NCBI GenBank assembly: GCA_039198915.1
Contig: JBCCTE010000001.1
Span: 1-26,143 of the forward strand
Source of the DNA: Cyanobacteria bacterium P01_D01_bin.73
Lineage (GTDB): Bacteria > Cyanobacteriota > Cyanobacteriia > CACIAM-69d
Direction of reading: 5' to 3'
DNA: 26,143 nucleotides
The position numbers and the translations under genes are program-made. Below, one piece after another: positions 3,649-16,080 of this stretch; the first letter of the stretch is position 1; the number at the start of each line of letters is the position of its first letter. The notes under the pieces are model-generated. The model was not told the DNA's origin, searched no databases, and saw only the letters and a list, made by a program, of their open reading frames with translations.

Positions 3649-3900
3649 ATGCCGAAGCAAAGCCCTGACCCTACACCTTCTAAGCCAGAATCTGAGCGTT
3701 TGCTGGTGACCTTGCCCGGATTTACCGCTGGGCGGTTTAAGTTGCTTTCAGAAAAAATGGGAGGTGAAGCGCTGGCGTCTCTCGTCAGACGAGCTGCTGA
3801 GGAGTGGGTTGTTTCAGACAACTATGATCGACTGCTTAAAGCGGCGATCGAACAAGAGCAATCCCAACCTGGCGATACAGGTCAGTTAGTTAAGGAGTAA
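3649..3900 (+). CDS. CopG/ribbon-helix-helix-like regulator
   Basis: ERLLVTLP strand followed by two helices (ALASLVRRAAEEW). Divergent from the ParM-like operon. Confidence 0.65.
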   Translation: MPKQSPDPTPSKPESERLLVTLPGFTAGRFKLLSEKMGGEALASLVRRAAEEWVVSDNYDRLLKAAIEQEQSQPGDTGQLVKE

Positions 3901-3903
3901 GCC

Positions 3904-4125
3904 ATGGAGAAGGCTAAACGGGCCACGATTCAGTTGGGCGATCGCGAATTGGAAGTTTTCCAGTTGCCCGACGGCTCGTATCGACTTAGCCAGTCCCAGG
4001 TTGCTGAGGCAGTAGAAAAGCCGGAAGCGAATTTCCCAGACTTTTTAGGCAAAAAATGACTGGAATCCTTACCTGGACTGGATCGTTCTAGTCATACTTT
4101 TTTGAAAATTGAGTACGAGGAATAG
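3904..4125 (+). pseudogene. Truncated antirepressor/P63C-like N-terminal fragment with in-frame TGA
   Basis: MEKAKRATIQLGDRELEVFQLPDGSYRLSQSQVAEAVEK..., TGA at 4057-4059, then the frame continues LESLPGLD...EYEE* into the dinD start. Confidence 0.55.
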
Positions 4126-4972
4126 TGTGGAATCTGAAACCATCAATCAACTATTTGAAGTTTTCGAATCTCATGCTCAAACCACAGAATCTGGCATTGA
4201 GTATTGGCTAGCACGCGACTTGCAGCATCTACTTGGATATTCCAAGTGGTCTAATTTCCTCAATGTGCTTTCCAAGGCAAAAACGGCTTGCGATGTCTCT
4301 GGAAACAACGTCTCAGACCATTTTGCCGACGTCGGTAAAATGGTCCAGCTCGGCTCTGGCGGGCAACGAGAGATCAGCGACGTTATGCTCACTCGCTATG
4401 CCTGTTACCTAGTGGCTCAAAATGGCGACCCTCAAAAACAAGAAATCGCATTTGCCCAAACCTACTTTGCAATCCAAACTCGTAAAGCAGAATTAGTAGA
4501 AAAGCGTGTATTAGAAGCGGAGCGGCTCTCGGCACGACAAAAGCTGACAGCAACGGAAAAAGAGCTCTCGCAGGTTATCTACGAAAAAACCGGCGGCAAC
4601 CGTAACTTTGGGTTAATTCGAAGTAAGGGTGATCAGGCGCTATTTGGTAGCAGTACCAAGGCGATGAAAGCCAGGTGGAACATTCCTGACAGGCGTCCTT
4701 TAGCGGATTTCGCACCCACCATCATTCTCAAAGCCAAGGACTTTGCTGCTGAAATCACAATTTTCAATACTCGAGCCAACGACCTCGACACAGAGCCACA
4801 AATATCCAGTGAGCACGTAACCAACAATCAGGCGGTACGCAAGACGCTGCTAGACCGAGGAATCCGCCCAGAGACCCTGGAACCGGATGAGGATATCAAA
4901 AAGGTGGAGCGACGGCTCAAATCTGAGAATAAGAAAACGTCAAAAGATCCACCCGCCTTAAATACGGAATAG
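4109..4972 (+). CDS. dinD: DNA damage-inducible protein D (BRO-like N-terminus)
   Basis: EYWLARDLQHLLGYSKW, LTRYACYLVAQNGDP, FAQTYFAIQTRKAE, PLADFAPTI and EHVTNNQAVR are characteristic DinD blocks. Confidence 0.9.
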   Translation: MSTRNSVESETINQLFEVFESHAQTTESGIEYWLARDLQHLLGYSKWSNFLNVLSKAKTACDVSGNNVSDHFADVGKMVQLGSGGQREISDVMLTRYACYLVAQNGDPQKQEIAFAQTYFAIQTRKAELVEKRVLEAERLSARQKLTATEKELSQVIYEKTGGNRNFGLIRSKGDQALFGSSTKAMKARWNIPDRRPLADFAPTIILKAKDFAAEITIFNTRANDLDTEPQISSEHVTNNQAVRKTLLDRGIRPETLEPDEDIKKVERRLKSENKKTSKDPPALNTE

Positions 4973-7608: not shown

Positions 7609-10600
7609 TCAATTCCACTACTACCGCCAAGGCGACTGCCCAATCTGTGGAGGTGCTGGGCATAAATCCAATAAAGTTTGCCGGTCCACCACCACCGATG
7701 ACGGACGCATTAAGGTCCATTGCTGGGGTGGTGGCGACGCTCTTAAAGGCTGGGGATATGTGGGCGATGATACTCACGGCATGGCCCAGTACATCGAAGG
7801 CTGGGGCGATCGCCGGGATATGGACCGGGATGCCAGAGAGCGCAAAGCAACGGCGGCGCGGGCACAGGCGGAAAAGGAGCGGCTGGGGCGATCGCTAACC
7901 ATTGAACGGGATGCCACTTACCGGAAATGGCAGGACAATCAACGTCTGAACCAGCGGGACCGGGACGAATTAACCCGGCGTGGTCTCTTGCCCAATGAAA
8001 TTCAATTAGCGCAGGAGCTGGGCTGGTTACGCCGCTGGGAGAAAGGGTCACAGCTATTTGGTCCTGCCAATATTCCCGGCGTAAATCATTGGGGGCTTGG
8101 TGGGCAATCGGGACTGGCGATCGCAGCGCCTAATTCTGACGGGCTAATCGCAGGCTTCCAAGTCAAGCCGGATAGCCAGGGCGATGGACCCAAATATCGC
8201 TGGCTAGCTGGCTGCGCCCTGCGTAATAATGAGCAGCCCATTCCGGTATTTCAGCATCCAGATCGCCGTGGGGATGTGGAAATCTGGATTACTGAGGGTT
8301 TTCTAAAGGCACTCGTTACAGCGTTTCTGGCATGGCGGCTAGGGCTCACCCATGTCGTAGTGGTGGGCTGTGGCGGTTCCAACTGGGCAAGCGCACCGGC
8401 GCAATGGGAACGCACCCTGCAGCGCCTCAATCCCACCGCAATCTACCTGTTACCCGACGCCGGCGCGGCCCAAAACGAAAACATCCTGGGGCAAGCGGAT
8501 AGGCTGCGATCGCTCCTACGCGGGCTGGGACATACTCTCAAATTTAAGTGGTGGGGGCAATTCGATAAATCGGGCAAGGGCAACCTAGACCCTGACGAAG
8601 TACCCACCCAAACCATCATCGATGCACCGGCGCTACCCGCTATCCCCGCCGGCGCGATTCAGCTTTGGAGCGAAACCCCCCAGCGACAGGCGTTACTGGT
8701 ACCCGGCGTAGGAATGCCATTGCTGTATGAGCCGGGCGATCGCCAGCGGGTGTGGGAGGGCATGGAAGATCGGGCGATCGCCAGTGGGCAGTCGTTAGTG
8801 GTGCTAGATACTAGCGAAGCCGGAAGCGGCAAATCGCGGGACGCCGGAATATTTCTGCACAACGCCCCCAATGGCACCCAGCGAGTGTTTGCGTCTCAGG
8901 AATATCGCAACCCATCGGATCCCACGTTAGATGCCCTGCCAGAGCTAGAAGCGAAGCACCTGGGCTTGGTCGGCAACGACATCGATGGGCGGTATATCCG
9001 TCGCACCCCTAAAGCTGGTGAAGAGCCCAACATTGAGCCGTCATGCGCCAAAGCACCCTATTTCCACAAGGCTCACTCCATGGGAGTGCAGGCGATCGCC
9101 GGTGCGGATTGCCATGCCTGTCGTACTTGCCCCATGGCAGATATCACCTATAGGGAAGGGGAGGTAGTAGCTCTAACCTGCCAACACCTAAATCGTAAGC
9201 GGGCTACCAAAGATACCCCCGCCTACCGGTGCCATCCCAGCACCATAGCCAAGCCCAGCGAGCGCTACGATTCCCAGACCGTAATCATTGATGAAGCCAC
9301 ACCGGCGCTATCAGCGGTGCAATCCCAAAGCTTTAGCCCTAATGATCTAGCCCAAGATTTTCAGGCACTCAAGGTAACGGCACCGGAGCCGGCTGCCATC
9401 ATTGAACCCCTTGTAGATGCCGATATTTTGGCGCTCCACAAGCTTTCTGCCAGCAAAGACCCAGAGGATTACTACGGGCTATCAAGTTACGCCCTGATGG
9501 AATCTCAAGCTCAGGCTGTTAAAGCTGTGGAGAGCCAACTAGAGGCATCTCCACACTTCGACTACATCTCCGCTGCCACACCGTGGGAATGGCTTGCCAA
9601 ACGCCTGGATAAAGCAACCCGCACACTACCTGATCATCACCTGGGCTCCACCCTGGAAGAGCACCTATGGGCACTGGATAACCTGGCCCGAGCACGATTT
9701 TTTGGAGAGCGGTTACGAGCAACAACCGGGCAACACAGTCGAGCCACCATGCCCCGCACCAACATTGCCAATGGTGATCGCCCGGCAACTCTACAGCTAA
9801 GCAATGCCAACGCCCGCACTAAGGCGCAATTCAAAACTGCTAACCGGCTGTCGATACTGTTAGATGCAACCGGCTCTCCCGCGCACCTACGACGCATCAC
9901 GGGACAACCGGTGTTCTGGATTCAGCAGCGGCGATCGCAGTTTCCCAACCTCACCATCAAACTCATCACCGGCACCGACAAGCTGAAGGTAAATCGTGAG
10001 CAATCAACGCGCGACCGCGCCCGATTATTGGCCCAGCGAGTTGCGGATGCTCATCAAGGACAATCCATCGGGCTTATTGATTACCAGCGCTACCGGGACG
10101 ACTATGACGGACTGGGCTTCAAATTCCTGTCCCGATTTGTCGAGTCCCGTGGCACCAACCGGGCTAAAGATTTGGATGCGATCGCCCTAATGGGTGTCGG
10201 CGTTTCTAACCTGGGGCAGCTGGCCATTCAGTATGAGTTACTGCACCGGTGCACTATTGCTGACCTTGCCCATGACCGTCGATTCCTCGCGTGGGTACGA
10301 AGGCGATCGCTGGACCTGACCGTTCAGGAAATTTCCAGACTTCGAGCCCAATGGTCATCTACGTCCCAGACGGTGTACGTCGCCGGGGCGAGCAAGACGG
10401 CGATCGCCCGACTGCAAAAGGAGTTTCCAGGGGCAACCGTCGAAGTGGTGGACGTAATGCGAATCAGCCCCCAATCGGCAACAGAGAAAGCCCAGCGTAC
10501 TGCCAACGCGGTTATCGATAGTGCAATAACTACCGCTAAAGACACCGGAGTGATGCCTTCCCAACAAGCCTTAGCGAAGGCGACCGGACGCTCGCTGTCC

Positions 10601-10966
10601 ACGGTACAACGAGCAGTTAAGTCTGTTTGCGGACAAGGCTACCGAGCATTTTCCAAAGTGGTCAAACGGCTATTAGAAACCATTAATAGTGGTTTGACCA
10701 CTTTCCAAAACAGTCTTGAATTGGAGACTTTGCGTCAGGAATTAGACGCTATTGGCTGTGGGCATTTCTTTGGCAGCGCCAACGCTTTAGAGACCATGGC
10801 CACATTGGAGGAGCATTTTAAGAATTACGGGCAAGCTCAGTTTCTACGGGCAATCGAAGGCGTTTCGACTTATGGGCGTGCCGGTATAGATCGGGCGATC
10901 GCAGCTGCGGCTGTAGACCAGGCGATCACCGCTCCAAAACCGGTGCTCATATTGCCACCGGAATAA
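7601..10966 (+). CDS. Plasmid replication primase-helicase (ZnF-Toprim/DUF3854-like-helicase-HTH; cyanobacterial CyRepA-like)
   Basis: N-terminal CPIC...C...HC, Toprim IWITEGFLKA and YLLPDAG, P-loop EAGSGKS, VIIDEA, LLDATG, C-terminal HTH SQQALAKATGRSLSTVQRAVK. Overlaps the helicase gene by 8 bp. Confidence 0.75.
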   Translation: MANQFHYYRQGDCPICGGAGHKSNKVCRSTTTDDGRIKVHCWGGGDALKGWGYVGDDTHGMAQYIEGWGDRRDMDRDARERKATAARAQAEKERLGRSLTIERDATYRKWQDNQRLNQRDRDELTRRGLLPNEIQLAQELGWLRRWEKGSQLFGPANIPGVNHWGLGGQSGLAIAAPNSDGLIAGFQVKPDSQGDGPKYRWLAGCALRNNEQPIPVFQHPDRRGDVEIWITEGFLKALVTAFLAWRLGLTHVVVVGCGGSNWASAPAQWERTLQRLNPTAIYLLPDAGAAQNENILGQADRLRSLLRGLGHTLKFKWWGQFDKSGKGNLDPDEVPTQTIIDAPALPAIPAGAIQLWSETPQRQALLVPGVGMPLLYEPGDRQRVWEGMEDRAIASGQSLVVLDTSEAGSGKSRDAGIFLHNAPNGTQRVFASQEYRNPSDPTLDALPELEAKHLGLVGNDIDGRYIRRTPKAGEEPNIEPSCAKAPYFHKAHSMGVQAIAGADCHACRTCPMADITYREGEVVALTCQHLNRKRATKDTPAYRCHPSTIAKPSERYDSQTVIIDEATPALSAVQSQSFSPNDLAQDFQALKVTAPEPAAIIEPLVDADILALHKLSASKDPEDYYGLSSYALMESQAQAVKAVESQLEASPHFDYISAATPWEWLAKRLDKATRTLPDHHLGSTLEEHLWALDNLARARFFGERLRATTGQHSRATMPRTNIANGDRPATLQLSNANARTKAQFKTANRLSILLDATGSPAHLRRITGQPVFWIQQRRSQFPNLTIKLITGTDKLKVNREQSTRDRARLLAQRVADAHQGQSIGLIDYQRYRDDYDGLGFKFLSRFVESRGTNRAKDLDAIALMGVGVSNLGQLAIQYELLHRCTIADLAHDRRFLAWVRRRSLDLTVQEISRLRAQWSSTSQTVYVAGASKTAIARLQKEFPGATVEVVDVMRISPQSATEKAQRTANAVIDSAITTAKDTGVMPSQQALAKATGRSLSTVQRAVKSVCGQGYRAFSKVVKRLLETINSGLTTFQNSLELETLRQELDAIGCGHFFGSANALETMATLEEHFKNYGQAQFLRAIEGVSTYGRAGIDRAIAAAAVDQAITAPKPVLILPPE

Positions 10967-11056
10967 TCATTGCCACCACTTCAAAATCGCTGCCCCCTGT
11001 GTTAGGGGTAGCCGCTGCATGGACAATAGGGTGAATCACACTTAGTTCAGGTGTAG

Positions 11057-11419
11057 GTGATGAAGACCAAAGGCAAAAATGGCATTGATCCTTTCCCCCG
11101 CTACGTTATTGAGGAGGCTGTGAGGGCATATGGACGGCTAGAGAGTGCTAGGGAGATCGTCTCAAGCCCGCCCCCAGAAAATGCTGCTAGACCAGTCTCC
11201 ATTGAGCTTGAGCCCGGACTCATTCATGCGGGATTAAGGCAGGCTTTTGAGCAAATGTGCAAGGGCGAGGAAATAACTCTGACGGTCAACGTGACGCTGC
11301 CACTTTCCGAGGAAGATCTATTGAGCTGCATTGAGGAGTGCTTGGGAGAGCAGGAAAGCTCTTCACTCGTTACTTCTTTACCGGCCTTTCAGCTTGGCTC
11401 TCTGATCCAAGACAGTTAA
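11057..11419 (+). CDS. Hypothetical acidic protein
   Basis: 120-aa ORF downstream of rep; no recognisable motif. Confidence 0.55.
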   Translation: MMKTKGKNGIDPFPRYVIEEAVRAYGRLESAREIVSSPPPENAARPVSIELEPGLIHAGLRQAFEQMCKGEEITLTVNVTLPLSEEDLLSCIEECLGEQESSSLVTSLPAFQLGSLIQDS

Positions 11420-11501
11420 ATACGATTTGCATTGTGACGATTGCTCTCGCGCGGGGGACATTTTGAGGGTGTGTGTCTTGAGGATGCGCTTTATACATCT
11501 C

Positions 11502-12459
11502 TGGATTTCAGCGACCCCATCCTCGTCTGGTCAATGGACAGCTTAGACTTTCAATCCCTAGGAAGGATTCCGATGGATTTCAGCCAACGCTTTTAAGTTA
11601 AGGCGACCTTCTTTTTCAACTTTCAATCCCTAGGAGGGATTCCGATGGATTTCAGCAGATCCAAACAACCGAAAAAACGGGGCAAATCTCGCCTTTCAAT
11701 CCCTAGGAAGGATTCCGATGGATTTCAGCTGTAACCGAACCACTGAAAAGTCAGCGCATTGAACGCTTTCAATCCCTAGGAAGGATTCCGATGGATTTCA
11801 GCCATACGCTGCGTCGTTAAACGCCCGAGGGAAGGACTTTCAATCCCTAGGAAGAATTCCGATGGATTTCAGCGATAGTTCGCCTAGAGGGCACATGGTC
11901 CCAAACTCACTTTCAATCCCTAGGAAGAATTCCGATGGATTTCAGCGTCCCCTTAAGCCCATCACCCCTACAGAGGTATTTCTTTCAATCCCTAGGAAGG
12001 ATTCCGATGGATTTCAGCCCATCAGGTCCAGGTACCTGATCAGGATTCAAGTCCTTTCAATCCCTAGGAAGGATTCCGATGGATTTCAGCTTTGCACCAG
12101 GGCGGCGCTAATCCACCAAGATTTATCGCTTTCAATCCCTAGGAAGGATTCCGATGGATTTCAGCGGCTTGGCGTTTGGCGGCTAATTGATCCTCTTGTT
12201 CACTTTCAATCCCTAGGAAGGATTCCGATGGATTTCAGCTTTCATTCAGCTTCTCGGGGGTGAGGTTTAACAGTCTTTCAATCCCTAGGAAGGATTCCGA
12301 TGGATTTCAGCCAAGTTGAGGATCACTCTCCCGCAATTTAGGAGAACTTTCAATCCCTAGGAAGGATTCCGATGGATTTCAGCGCAGCTGGATGCTCCTA
12401 ATGGTTGGGTTTATCTCGAATCCTTTCAATCCCTAGGAAGGATTCCGATGGATTTCAGC
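11502..12459 (-). CRISPR. CRISPR array: 13 full 37-bp repeats plus a truncated terminal repeat, 13 spacers of 34-39 bp
   Basis: Minus-strand repeat GCTGAAATCCATCGGAATCCTTCCTAGGGATTGAAAG. Plus-strand starts at 11548, 11620, 11693, 11766, 11837, 11910, 11982, 12054, 12129, 12203, 12275, 12347, 12423; 11-nt remnant at 11502-11512. Orientation inferred from the 3' hairpin, the ATTGAAAG end and the degenerate left terminus. Confidence 0.98.
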
Positions 12460-12480
12460 TGTGGTGTCCTATAGCCCAAG

Positions 12481-14373
12481 CTATATCGGTGATTGAGCCT
12501 CCTTTTGCGCGGATTGATTATTAGCTGATATTCCAAAGGTGTCGGAAGTGGGATCGTGCGATCGCTCAGCCTGTGGCGATCGCAGATGTGTTGGGCTTTC
12601 CGCGACTCGCGCGGACCCTTTAGGCTGCACTTTTCGCCGTCTGTCCCGCGTAGCGGGGATTTCGGGATGATTCACCAAGTTGGACGAGAGAATATCCCCC
12701 GACTCGCGCACCAGAGTACGAACCTGACTATCACCGCTCTCAGGCGAACTACATAGGCCGTCAAAACGGCTAGGGGCATCGCTCACCGACACGAGCGCAC
12801 CCTTCTTAGACATCACTGGCGATAAGCTCAGTGGCTTTAAGCGTCCCGGTAGAATCCGGGATTTAGAATCAAGCGCATCGCTCAAGATGTTGGCGGCACC
12901 AACCCCATCACGATCACCTGTCCATCCGCAGCTACGGCAGACGTAGAGTCGTCCCCGTGGTTTGCGTCTAGCCCCGCACTTGGGACAAGTTTGAGAGGTA
13001 TAGCGCTCGCTTTGTAGCGATAGCGTTGCGCCATGTTCCTCTAATTTCTGCTGTAAAAGATCGCGTTGACGTCCAACCTCCCATAGGGCATTTCGCTTAG
13101 ATTGAAGCTTGCGAGTTTCCCCCTTTTTACGTCCCTTAGGGATGTTGAACACATCTCCAAAGTAAAGCGTTCCAACATCCTGGGCGATGCACCAATTAGC
13201 AATTCGCTTAGTCACACAGTGGTTTGCATAACGTAGCTTTCGCCGGGCGATCGCGTTATGGCGCCCAAGGGCATGCTTCAGTTTCCAATCCCTATTTGAG
13301 TAACGACGACGATACCGAAATGTCTCAGGAGAATTGCCCGCTGCAACGTGGCGCTCTAACTGTTCTCTGCGACGGTGGGCTGCAATGCGTTGGTGGGCGT
13401 ATTTCGTACCCGCCCCTGAAGACTTCGCCTCCATAGACGTCATTGTTTCCCGTTCTTCTGAGGAAAGGTAATAGCGCACTTGTCCACGGAACACCCGCGC
13501 CCTTTTTCGGTTAATAGCCTTTTGTGATCGTTCCCTCTGGCGCTTAACAGCAAGGATGTCATGCCCCGACACCGAACGAATACGCCCTTTGCTATCAGCT
13601 ACAACCATCGCTCGAAGCTGACCAGGATCGACCGCTGCCACATTAGTCAGCGCTTTCACCTCATCTGCATCTGGCTTTGGTAAGGAATAGGAAAGGTGAA
13701 TCCATGCATCTCCCCCGTCATCAAAAGAGATGGATGCTTGCAAGACTTCCATTCCTACCATCTTGGGAGGAACTGATACGGTGACAAAACCACCAATCTG
13801 AGTTTTAGACCCCAGCTGCAGGTGAGTACCGACCCACCGACACTCTGCCTTCAGGACATCCCACTTACGCCCTGATGGCTTACGAACAGAGCGGAACCGC
13901 ATCGGCAACTGAGCCCGGTAATTTCCCTTCTTGCGATGAGTCCAGAAGCCTTTGATTTGACCACGCATCCCCCGGCAGAGTGCGGATACTTGCTTAGAGC
14001 TAATGCCATACTTGCACCCGGCATCGAATGGAGCTGGTTGCCGGTCCGTCAAAGCTTTCAGGTACGGCCATGGCTCTAGCATGGCGTCCTTCCGGTACTC
14101 AGCTACCGGTACCCCAGCTATTACTTCACCTGTGTCCGCAAAAATACGGCGGGCTCGCTCAGCTCCTTTTCCTTTGATAAAGCAATGTCGAACTGCATCC
14201 CCATTAGCAATTGGGAATATTGGCTGTGAATGCAACCTCATTGCATTAACCAGCTCGTTGTAACACCATCGTTGAGCAGCCATTAGCGCCGCAACCTGTG
14301 CCCGCTTCTTTCTCGTCAAGCGCACTGGCGTGACGACAGTTCGCGACAGTTTAGTGGTTTTATCTTTCGCCAT
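12481..14373 (-). CDS. tnpB: CRISPR-adjacent TnpB/Cas12f-like RNA-guided RuvC protein
   Basis: N-terminal helix AQRWCYNELV, RuvC-I AAVD249PG, RuvC-II LYFG406D, QSE456RYTSQTC, Zn finger C463/466/479/482, RuvC-III DRD489GVGAANI. Stop codon 21 bp from the first repeat. Confidence 0.9.
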   Translation of the reverse strand: MAKDKTTKLSRTVVTPVRLTRKKRAQVAALMAAQRWCYNELVNAMRLHSQPIFPIANGDAVRHCFIKGKGAERARRIFADTGEVIAGVPVAEYRKDAMLEPWPYLKALTDRQPAPFDAGCKYGISSKQVSALCRGMRGQIKGFWTHRKKGNYRAQLPMRFRSVRKPSGRKWDVLKAECRWVGTHLQLGSKTQIGGFVTVSVPPKMVGMEVLQASISFDDGGDAWIHLSYSLPKPDADEVKALTNVAAVDPGQLRAMVVADSKGRIRSVSGHDILAVKRQRERSQKAINRKRARVFRGQVRYYLSSEERETMTSMEAKSSGAGTKYAHQRIAAHRRREQLERHVAAGNSPETFRYRRRYSNRDWKLKHALGRHNAIARRKLRYANHCVTKRIANWCIAQDVGTLYFGDVFNIPKGRKKGETRKLQSKRNALWEVGRQRDLLQQKLEEHGATLSLQSERYTSQTCPKCGARRKPRGRLYVCRSCGWTGDRDGVGAANILSDALDSKSRILPGRLKPLSLSPVMSKKGALVSVSDAPSRFDGLCSSPESGDSQVRTLVRESGDILSSNLVNHPEIPATRDRRRKVQPKGSARVAESPTHLRSPQAERSHDPTSDTFGISANNQSAQKEAQSPI

Positions 14374-14473
14374 CTAGATAAGTGGCTCAGCCGGTCATAT
14401 CTAATGAAAATTGATACTGATTTCAGAATAGCAATGTTCCAGGAGAGAGTGGTCGGGTCTGCCTTAACTAGCT

Positions 14474-14875
14474 TTATTTGTTGGCTTCGGTGTCTAGCCC
14501 TTCAGCCGCAATGCGCAGAGATTGCTGGTTGGGGCATCGGTCAATATCGCTTTCGTCAATGGCTGCCAAGCCGCGCAACAGAAGCTCTGCATTCAAGTGA
14601 ATTTCTAGCTCGGAATCAGTAGGGATGAAAATTTCGACCTGATTATCACTGCCTAAAACCACAACTTGATCGCCGAAGCTTACCAGTTTTTCTAGCTCAG
14701 CTTTAGCGCCCGGCTTAGGGGAAACGCCACACAGCTTTACTGGCTGGTTTTGCCCGTTGATTTGGACCACCAAAGTTTCACCATCGATGATCTCAGAGAG
14801 AAAGCCGCTCTGGCTGCTGTAGTTCTGATCGCAACTCAGTAGCAGTAGAGCCAGCAAGGTTATCCAGGATTTCAT
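14474..14875 (-). CDS. Thermonuclease (SNase)-like lipoprotein, catalytic motifs degenerate
   Basis: Lipobox LLLSC; EIIDGETLVV...VKLCGV...LNAELLLRGLA. Canonical DGDT, GIDAPE and YGR motifs are altered or missing. Confidence 0.7.
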   Translation of the reverse strand: MKSWITLLALLLLSCDQNYSSQSGFLSEIIDGETLVVQINGQNQPVKLCGVSPKPGAKAELEKLVSFGDQVVVLGSDNQVEIFIPTDSELEIHLNAELLLRGLAAIDESDIDRCPNQQSLRIAAEGLDTEANK

Positions 14876-15135
14876 CGCTGTGCGATCGCCCCCGCCACTG
14901 TTAACAACGTTTTTTCGAGTTGCTTCATTCTGTTCTCTAAATCGGCAACTTTGCTTTGGAGGCTTGCTCCGGTTTCTCGTTTTAGCTCGCGCAAAACAAT
15001 TTTTTTTAGCAAACCAGCGCGGGTTGTCCCTTGTTCATTCGCTAGCTTGTCAAATTCATCAATGGTTGTCTGGTCAAGACGGCAACCGACAGGGATGGAA
15101 CTCATTTTGAAAACGGCGTTAACGTGCGCCGCCAC
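14872..15135 (-). CDS. CopG/RHH-like regulator with C-terminal coiled coil
   Basis: IPVGCRLD-helix-TTRAGLLKKIV, then heptad LQSKVADLENRMKQLEK. ATGA overlap with the next gene. Confidence 0.7.
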   Translation of the reverse strand: MAAHVNAVFKMSSIPVGCRLDQTTIDEFDKLANEQGTTRAGLLKKIVLRELKRETGASLQSKVADLENRMKQLEKTLLTVAGAIAQR

Positions 15136-15223
15136 TAAATTTCATTCTCAATAATTGGCACCTGTTTTCAACAGCCGCGATTAATAAATTGCCGCCTGCC
15201 TACAATCCTTGTATTTACTGCTA

Positions 15224-15251
15224 ATGTTAGATAATACTAATTATCTCATAT
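15224..15251. other. dif/Xer-like 28-bp recombination core site
   Basis: ATGTTAGATAA-TACTAA-TTATCTCATAT: 11-6-11 architecture, arms 9/11 inverted, with inner ATAA/TTAT as in Xer sites. Ends 7 bp before the recombinase ATG. Confidence 0.65.
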
Positions 15252-15258
15252 TAAAATT

Positions 15259-16080
15259 ATGGGACCGATTTACCACGATTGGATCAGTCGAGCGCGATCG
15301 CCTCATACGGCTCGGATCTACCAACAGAGTTTGGATAAGTGGAAATCGGTGTTTGGGAGGTTGCCGTCTGGAGAAACGAGGGCAGCTAATTTAGATCGGT
15401 TTCTTAGATCGATGGCTCATTTGTCGCCAGCAACGAAAGCAACCCATATACGGAATATCAAAACGTTGTTGCGCTGGGGGCATGATGAGGGGCATTGGCG
15501 TTGTCCCCCGTCGGTGTTGAAATATCGATTGCGATCGCCGGGGACTGCTGCTGCGTCGCGATTCTTAAGTCCTGACGATGCCCGAGCCATCATTACGGCG
15601 GCTGGGAATGAGCGGGACCGGTTGATGTTGCAGTGCTTGTTTTCTTTAGGACTTAGGAATGCTGAGTTGCGGGGGCTGGAATGGTCCGACCTATACTATG
15701 ACCGCCTTACGGTGCGGGGTAAGGGGGAGAAGGTGCGATCTCTGATGGTGCCGGAAGAGCTGCTGAAGCAGTTGAATGTGTGGCGAGCTGCTAGCAGTGG
15801 TAAGGGGCTGATTTTCCGTAGTCATCGTAGTGGATCAAGACTGGAAGGGCAGCATGTGTGGCGGGTGGTGAAGGAGGCGGCGGCGATCGCCAGGGAGGCA
15901 GATCCGAGTATTCCCGATGCGAGTCCCCACTGGTTCCGTCATGCGTTGGCGTCAGCGGCTTTGCAGGGAGGCGCGACGGTTAAGCAGGTACAGGTGTATT
16001 TAGGGCATTCGTCGGGGCAAACGACGTTGGATACCTATGCCCATGTAATTGGGGATGTGGCGATTGCGGATTTTGTTTAG
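15259..16080 (+). CDS. Tyrosine recombinase (XerC/D-like; likely multimer resolvase)
   Basis: GLRNAEL, RGKGEK, HWFRH, LGHSS, TYAH: the catalytic R-K-H-R-H-Y set is intact. Confidence 0.93.
   Translation: MGPIYHDWISRARSPHTARIYQQSLDKWKSVFGRLPSGETRAANLDRFLRSMAHLSPATKATHIRNIKTLLRWGHDEGHWRCPPSVLKYRLRSPGTAAASRFLSPDDARAIITAAGNERDRLMLQCLFSLGLRNAELRGLEWSDLYYDRLTVRGKGEKVRSLMVPEELLKQLNVWRAASSGKGLIFRSHRSGSRLEGQHVWRVVKEAAAIAREADPSIPDASPHWFRHALASAALQGGATVKQVQVYLGHSSGQTTLDTYAHVIGDVAIADFV

Follow-up and report, generated by a model that had tools for sequence, protein, structure and literature searches.

Cas12n (type V-N, formerly V-U4) is a miniature effector derived from TnpB whose C-terminal region is disordered, with a CRISPR array downstream and no adaptation module, and this layout recurs at the locus described here, a TnpB/Cas12f-like effector and its array on contig JBCCTE010000001.1. 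The window, the whole stretch of DNA analyzed, is that entire 26,143-nt contig, which comes from a cyanobacterial metagenome-assembled genome (MAG; 3.3 Mb, 72% complete) and carries a mobile-element gene set comprising a ParM-like protein, Bro-N, a helicase and an integrase. In Cas12n, the gene for the trans-activating CRISPR RNA (tracrRNA) overlaps the 3′ part of the effector open reading frame (ORF) (PMC12216341), and the guide consists of three to four stem-loops, an anti-repeat:repeat stem and, ahead of the spacer, a handful of unpaired bases (bioRxiv 10.64898/2026.03.27.714800). At the present locus, minus-strand positions 12523-12832 very likely form a tracrRNA-like scaffold that lies wholly inside the coding sequence of the effector's disordered tail, as judged from comparison of related sequences. 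The principal features are as follows.

11548-12459, minus strand: CRISPR array of 13 repeats of 37 nt with spacers of 34-39 nt, co-oriented with the effector
12481-14373, minus strand: effector ORF of 630 amino acids (aa), TnpB/Cas12f-like (P0001), assigned from PF07282, NF040570 and profile and fold matches
12484-12834, minus strand: predicted disordered tail, codons 514-630, with a pLDDT (predicted local distance difference test) value of ~30, no coding-type conservation and an open frame
12523-12832, minus strand, sense: tracrRNA-like structured RNA of ~310 nt with seven co-varying helices, ending in an anti-repeat, from the 13-locus comparison

The likeness to Cas12n is one of architecture alone, with no detectable sequence kinship: the family profile matched neither a Cas12n chain (9J09) nor a Cas12k chain at E <= 0.01, and 9J09 is not among the top fold matches listed. 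The present family also differs in carrying Gly at the RuvC-II Glu position, in its cyanobacterial mobile-element hosts, in the length of its scaffold (~310 nt against a 170-nt tracrRNA) and in an ORF that reaches or enters repeat 1 and ends in QLxLW in relatives.

In TnpB systems, the omegaRNA overlaps the 3′ end of tnpB. The initial annotation had assigned the tail of the present effector to the same slot as this RNA (also called right-end element RNA, reRNA, in IS200/IS605 elements), and the comparison bears this out: a sense-strand scaffold with a pseudoknot lies under the 3′ part of the ORF, the guide is placed 3′ of the scaffold, and the protein fold is close to that of TnpB (8iaz, 8h1j, 8exa). 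Unlike in TnpB, the guide is unfused and would be drawn from a 13-repeat array through an anti-repeat, the array stands in place of the transposon right end, no TnpA match was found, the locus is single-copy in the MAG, and the protein is 630 aa long. Cas12k (type V-K, of the cyanobacterial CRISPR-associated transposons) resembles the present system in its cyanobacterial host, an effector of ~630 aa, 37-nt repeats, the absence of adaptation genes and a long tracrRNA just upstream of the array. Type V-K repeats end in GGGUUGAAAG, and the window repeats end in GGGAUUGAAAG. The two differ in that no Tn7-type (Tns) family was matched among the window ORFs scanned (Pfam, NCBIfam) and in the lack of any sequence match to Cas12k chains.

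Cas12f, represented by AsCas12f (8j12), likewise uses a tracrRNA guide with a pseudoknot and a repeat:anti-repeat stem; it differs in its canonical RuvC-II Glu and in having no unstructured tail, and its tracrRNA has been sought between gene and array (bioRxiv 10.64898/2026.03.27.714800). TranC systems (e.g. LaTranC, 9jfq) combine a TnpB-like effector with a split guide of tracrRNA and crRNA and a short array, and are often phage-borne. The fold match of the present effector to LaTranC (E 6e-9) is weaker than that to Cas12f, with no profile match, and in TranC clades 11 and 20 the tracrRNA lies outside the C-terminal region (bioRxiv 10.64898/2026.03.27.714800). A survey in PNAS recorded 40 uncharacterized Cas12-U groups, mostly array-only (PMC10691335), and the present family may be one of these.

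Probable structured RNA and anti-repeat beneath the effector tail

The DNA of 13 further loci was compared with the window, from sources that include a GTDB genome scan and a metagenome scan, each of which added one locus; a scan of IMG/VR returned no relative, and the P0009 locus is not part of the set. Thirteen tails were aligned with MAFFT, blind to structure (alignment A2), and helices were derived by RNAalifold together with a scan for conserved stacked pairs and then counted on A2. All of the following elements lie on the minus strand.

12815-12832: helix H1, hairpin ACUG / CAGU, from covariation on A2
12757-12770: helix H2, hairpin GCCG / CGGC, whose closing pair alternates between CG, GC and UA among loci
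12633-12748: long-range helix P3, pairing 12743-48 with 12633-38; 5 of 6 pairs compensatory
12609-12709: pseudoknot helix of 9 bp, pairing 12701-09 with 12609-17 and crossing P3
12686-12700: helix H5, a hairpin directly 3′ of the pseudoknot 5′ strand; the weakest helix, with 71% of cells paired
12645-12657: helix H6, the CCCGC-N3-GCGGG hairpin
12557-12584: helix H7, 8 bp, whose arms are two highly iterated palindrome 1 (HIP1) sites in the window; 8 of 8 pairs compensatory
12523-12557: 34-nt anti-repeat, from ungapped helices mapped to alignment columns and cognate duplex energies
12504-12513: block 8, UCCGCGCAAA, the first GCGCG motif of the initial annotation, resembling the pseudoknot 3′ strand and changing together with it

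The seven helices comprise 40 pairs, in which 88.2% of the cells are paired, compared with 35-42% when partners are slid by one to three columns. Changes on both sides occur in 28 of the 40 pairs, so that the covariance across homologous loci proposed by the initial annotation as a check is indeed found; the covariation score is 0.569 against 0.10-0.14 in the slid controls, and none of 500 shuffles attains any of five structure measures. The paired columns contain 59 G-U cells and 16 A-C cells, an imbalance which identifies the folded strand as sense with respect to both ORF and array. P3 and the 9-bp helix cross each other, which makes the fold pseudoknotted.

This fold accommodates the sequence motifs from which the initial annotation had started. 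Its three GCGCG-core motifs (TTTGCGCGGA at 12504-13, GACTCGCGC at 12604-12 and at 12701-09), the hairpin CCCGC-GTA-GCGGG at 12645-57 and the HIP1 sites GCGATCGC at 12558-65 and 12577-84 are all present where it placed them. The third GCGCG motif is the 5′ strand of the pseudoknot and the second overlaps its 3′ strand, the hairpin is H6 and the HIP1 pair forms the arms of H7, so that a leader is not needed to explain them. H7 is the best-supported helix, and the relatives carry unrelated sequences in the columns where the window has HIP1 GCGATCGC. Additionally, the minus-strand 9-mer GCGCGAGTC has exactly two copies in the 26-kb window, both within the effector tail, where 0.2 are expected; two copies were attained in 1 of 100 shuffles.

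The anti-repeat was located by pairing each tail with its own repeat in ungapped helices and placing these on the alignment columns. All ten loci with arrays carry, immediately 3′ of H7, 7-9 nt complementary to repeat nt 25/27-33, even though these core sequences diverge between loci (CGAUCCC, CGACACCGA, CAGCAACU, CAACCAGC and others). In the window, the core is CGAUCCC (12550-56), which pairs with repeat nt 27-33, and the full segment forms 22 bp with repeat nt 1-34. L003, a distant Floridaenema locus with a tail of ~240 codons, keeps this register: its CAACCCUUA pairs with repeat nt 25-33, and a second stretch further on pairs with repeat nt 8-16, which brings the loci that share the register to 11. 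The number of free repeat bases beside the spacer is 3-4 overall and four in 9 of 10 loci. The 7-nt match at 12511-17 reported by the initial annotation does exist, but it does not fall at a conserved position, and the conserved anti-repeat is the segment at 12523-12557.

Pairing energies extend this register beyond the core. The ~40 nt that follow the core bind the 5′ part of the cognate repeat at -17.3 kcal/mol, compared with -11.0 kcal/mol for non-cognate repeats, and three control segments exhibit no preference for the cognate repeat. Across the whole segment, 21-28 bp form with repeat nt 1-34, at a mean of -27.0 kcal/mol for cognate and -18.0 kcal/mol for non-cognate partners, and 7 of 10 loci pair best with their cognate repeat. 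Plain RNAduplex runs of the repeat against the 600 nt upstream could not be told from shuffles at any locus, and a histogram of 6-bp matches by column proved too noisy to use.

From these sequence comparisons we infer a discrete RNA, with its ends, processing and expression, and a nuclease activity of the effector that it would guide. The effector mRNA, the scaffold and the array would be produced as sense transcripts, and the anti-repeat would pair with the repeats of the pre-crRNA. The repeat:anti-repeat duplex would then be processed, and scaffold and crRNA would be loaded into the effector to target DNA, as in Cas12n, Cas12f and TnpB. The tail polypeptide would serve as a flexible linker whose only conserved residues are those of the terminal QLxLW.

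Block 8 forms a further potential element of the fold. It occupies A2 columns 521-530, reads GCUUGCAAA in the L027 group, and changes in step with both pseudoknot strands. Because it could stand in for the 3′ strand of the pseudoknot over 5 bp, an alternative pairing or a switch is suggested; an alternative fold, a processing signal or a part of a leader are candidate roles that it may have.

Codon signature, open frame and terminal motif of the tail

The codon signature differs sharply between the effector core (residues 100-505) and its tail. In codon alignments of the window with L023, the identities at codon positions 1/2/3 are 0.68/0.80/0.36 in the core and 0.53/0.54/0.58 in the tail. The ratio of nonsynonymous to synonymous divergence (dN/dS) is about 0.1-0.15 in the core, where dS is saturated, and 0.6-0.9 in the tail, and tail dS lies 3-4 fold below core dS. 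For example, in the closest pair, L024 and L001, dS falls from 0.36 in the core to 0.08 in the tail at a dN of 0.06 in both, and between L023 and L024 it falls from 1.38 to 0.43. A sliding window places the flip at residue about 505-520, downstream of which the third-position deficit is gone. Moreover, the nucleotide blocks of locus L036 persist across in-frame stops and a frameshift. The initial annotation had described the tail as disordered, and AlphaFold2 agrees over ~120 aa, giving residues 514-630 a pLDDT of ~30 and no secondary structure; the pattern it had named as contrary to its proposal, amino-acid conservation with synonymous bias, is absent from the tail except for the terminal QLxLW in relatives.

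Despite this nucleotide-type conservation, the reading frame stays open. Across 2123 tail codons, frame 0 contains 8 stops (the terminal ones plus three in L036), and the other frames contain 83 and 139. At any one locus, an open frame would arise by chance with a probability of at most 0.016; the value is about 0 in the AT-rich L003, in which the frame is open for 241 codons and another frame has 26 stops. In every intact relative, the frame is open up to, or into, repeat 1: the array begins no more than 4 nt past the stop codon in L023, L024 and L001/L002, and the stop codon lies inside repeat 1 in L026, L025, L027, L028, L003 and L040, so that every further locus not cut by a contig end has an array that adjoins or encloses the stop. 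The corresponding gap in the window is 21 nt. Because the array abuts or overlaps the ORF in relatives, they have no intergenic space for a tracrRNA or a leader, and either must underlie the ORF. Translation-transcription coupling that avoids Rho termination before the array was considered as a reason for the open frame and set aside, given that cyanobacteria are not known to have Rho.

Within the last ~60 aa of 12 relatives, invariance is confined to three residues, Q, L and W, in a terminal [YF]xQLx[LI]W[DG]. The codons at motif position 4 vary among those for Leu and Ile (CTT, TTG, ATT, ATC, CTC), and L003 encodes QL as CAA TTG where the others use CAG CTT, both of which argue for selection on the peptide. 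The window's own copy of the motif has decayed.

12469-12483, minus strand: decayed QLxLW codons, TAG CTT GGG CTA TAG, against CAG CTT nnn nTn TGG in relatives

TAG codons stand at both the Q (12481-83) and the W (12469-71) positions, each one transition away, and the first is the stop of the ORF; the window's own protein therefore lacks QLxLW. These codons could reflect true decay of the motif or an error in the MAG consensus.

The bacterial motif for binding the beta sliding clamp is QL[SD]LF, found in the class that includes Pol IV, Pol V, MutS and Hda. The terminal motif resembles it in its Q-L-x-L-aromatic pattern, its place at the end of a disordered tail and its predicted docking between clamp domains II and III, and differs in having W instead of F or L and in being missing from the window's own copy. 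Complex prediction of the MAG's own DnaN (L041:1501-2634, alignment A3) with tail ends (A4) reached a score of 0.64, against 0.04 for the best of three controls; the 0.64 mark is attained by 58 of 80 solved complexes and by 2 of 110 mismatched pairs. Contact agreement in the DnaN-tail runs was at least 64%, with a partner pLDDT of at least 42. In the predicted complex, tail residues 41-49, which hold QLALW, contact DnaN residues 173-178, 247-252 and 369-377, i.e. the canonical peptide cleft. This docking speaks to likeness to the clamp motif rather than to binding, since clamp-peptide complexes are solved and the predictor may have reproduced them. On these predictions, QLxLW is most likely a beta sliding-clamp-binding motif; the W at the last position, where the textbook residue is F or L, weighs against that assignment. 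Nothing relevant on a clamp motif in TnpB, Cas12 or CRISPR effectors, or on QLxLW strings, was found in the literature searched.

A wider proposal follows the motif, which we hold tentatively and at somewhat less than even weight: this small family of type V effectors, borne on cyanobacterial plasmids and phages, would be tethered to the replisome beta sliding clamp through a QLxLW hook, and its tail would have to be translated through the tracrRNA gene that it overlaps. RNA and protein would then each require the overlap, which would be no relic, and the linker would bring the nuclease to replicating DNA, for example of incoming or rival replicons.

Weighing the alternatives

Several observations temper the proposal of a scaffold within the tail and its hook. 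The single-sequence fold of window positions 12515-12835 is no better than shuffles (z = -0.49), so that the window alone is not unusually stable and the structural case is wholly comparative, and an Rfam scan of 10500-15500 at E <= 1 returned no match. H5 is weak (71% of its cells paired), H2 is misaligned in one subgroup, and the 5-bp substitution by block 8 means that the fold may not be unique. The 13 loci are kin, L024 and L001 closely so, and the compensatory cells counted therefore outnumber independent events. CAGCTT is synonymously invariant in 13 loci at a fixed 24 nt before repeat 1, which fits a nucleotide-level role too, and the window copy is without QLxLW yet retains a 13-repeat array.

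The motifs, which the initial annotation had likened to the repeated motifs of cyanobacterial I-D/III leaders, could instead belong to a CRISPR leader, serving as DNA-level promoter and Cas1-Cas2 or IHF-type docking sites through which the ORF passes by chance. The compensatory and G-U changes in the conserved blocks, needless for DNA sites, make this improbable, even though the region immediately precedes repeat 1 along the path of transcription, the final 24 nt before repeat 1 keep a fixed distance and are partly invariant (CAGCTT...TGG), and the 13 distinct spacers imply that some acquisition occurred. A sigma-70-like site does exist ~50 nt before repeat 1 (-35 at 12545-40, -10 at 12522-17), but the promoter scan returned this one site where 3.1 are expected by chance, and a comparable -10 hexamer is not seen at that place in relatives (by eye on A2). 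Scans of ten of the larger window ORFs with Pfam and NCBIfam found no cas1, cas2 or cas4, the smaller ORFs and the rest of the MAG lying outside that scan. At most the last ~60 nt (12460-12522) could be leader or promoter; a promoter may lie in the 63 nt that separate the anti-repeat from repeat 1, where the one sigma-70-like site is not above chance. The suggestion of the initial annotation that the ORF overlaps a leader or a scaffold RNA accordingly survives in its second half, which covariation, the anti-repeat, flat codon positions, low dS and the open frame support, whereas the leader falls away as the explanation of the motifs. More improbable still is an unsplit, omegaRNA-like cis scaffold that forms one transcript with repeat 1 and spacer 1 and leaves the other repeats as passengers: scaffold, ~63-nt linker and repeat 1 are contiguous on the same strand, and L036 retains the scaffold with one repeat-like unit and then a T-run, but most loci keep 4-13 near-identical repeats with unrelated spacers, pairing of the anti-repeat with the whole repeat is a hallmark of pairing in trans, and the ~63-nt linker would need looping out. 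Scarcely tenable is an ordinary conserved protein domain whose codons merely happen to form the nucleotide motifs. Its third positions are as conserved as the first and second, dN/dS is 0.6-0.9, the blocks of L036 are kept despite in-frame stops and a frameshift, no fold is predicted, and the conserved blocks pair with each other; set against these, BLASTP coverage reaches 98-99% in several relatives, with LKPLSLSPVM, SPRNP and VRAKRESL recurring.

A rather unlikely, though weightier, alternative accepts the RNA and takes the tail polypeptide as a functionless relic, as reported for Cas12n, with QLxLW and the open frame as by-products of nucleotide constraint at the junction of scaffold or leader with repeat 1. 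The fixed distance of the synonymously fixed CAGCTT to repeat 1 and the window copy with stops at the Q and W codons are in keeping with it, as is the original Cas12n study as cited in PMC12721324, according to which truncation of the flexible region of AcCas12n reportedly did not significantly harm nuclease activity. RNA structure alone, however, does not explain the avoidance of stops over ~120-240 codons in 12 of 13 loci, among them the AT-rich L003, open for 241 codons against 26 stops in another frame. The variation of motif position 4 among Leu and Ile codons, as under selection on residues, the retention of QL in L003 with different codons, and the in-silico docking in the clamp cleft (0.64 against 0.04 for the best control) also speak against a tail without function.

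Locus context, relatives and implications

The effector carries D249 as its RuvC-I residue and D487/D489 in RuvC-III, and Gly406 occupies the usual position of the RuvC-II Glu in alignment with AsCas12f, where this residue is canonical. It matches PF07282 (TNB domain) at 2e-17 and the 'guided_TnpB' model NF040570 at 92 bits, under that model's cut-off. Its best solved relatives are AsCas12f, OsCas12f, ISFba1 TnpB and ISDra2 TnpB, with Fanzor2 and LaTranC more remote; AsCas12f 8j12 is the best match (profile 8e-10; fold E 1e-14, template modeling score 0.64 by target). An exhaustive profile search recovered only ~15 cluster representatives above 220 bits, and the next matches are ordinary TnpBs of ~400 aa at no more than 180 bits.

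The 13 array spacers had no match in the remainder of the host MAG, so that no self-targeting was seen, and neither the repeat nor the tail has a second copy there. The minus-strand ORF at 14474-14875 (133 aa), directly upstream of the effector, matched neither Pfam nor NCBIfam and hence is no recognizable TnpA; the equivalent slot in relatives holds other small unannotated ORFs or helix-turn-helix genes. Arrays of 4-13 near-identical repeats with unrelated spacers are retained in most loci. In L037, L038 and L039, the contigs end 26-56 nt past the gene, within the first repeat. Such ends would be expected if assemblies break at arrays, and the presence of arrays in the family is probably under-counted.

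Individual relatives depart from this layout. L036:1497-2040 is a decayed chromosomal relative (P0007, N-terminally short) whose tail has in-frame stops and a frameshift; its RNA blocks are kept and followed by a single repeat-like unit and then a T-run, without an array, resembling a solo scaffold-plus-guide remnant. L040:2205-2330 is a mini-array whose repeats 1 and 2 are only 13 nt apart, leaving a truncated spacer. L001 (with L002 alike) contains a 26-nt duplication, 96% identical, at 3828-3853 and 4114-4139, with the second copy just after RuvC-III; it encodes part of the conserved SIPKGRKK near RuvC-II and adds ~11 residues at the start of the P0005 tail.

A tracrRNA within a disordered C-terminal tail, in Cas12n, and the overlap of the omegaRNA with tnpB are already published. 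An ORF that reaches or enters repeat 1, a scaffold of ~310 nt and a terminal clamp-like motif were not found described in the literature searched, and the clamp-like hook is possibly new. For this family, the proposed arrangement subjects a single piece of DNA to two kinds of selection, with the codon signature flipping sharply at residue ~510-515, and it supplies a guide-RNA map (scaffold, pseudoknot and anti-repeat register) for an apparently uncharacterized miniature type V family, which offers a basis for reconstitution. It would extend the tracrRNA-in-tail layout beyond Cas12n and support the inheritance of such layouts from the omegaRNA overlap of TnpB. If QLxLW is a true clamp hook, it would be the first link found between a CRISPR/TnpB-type nuclease and the replisome clamp, and it would account for an open frame maintained across an RNA gene.

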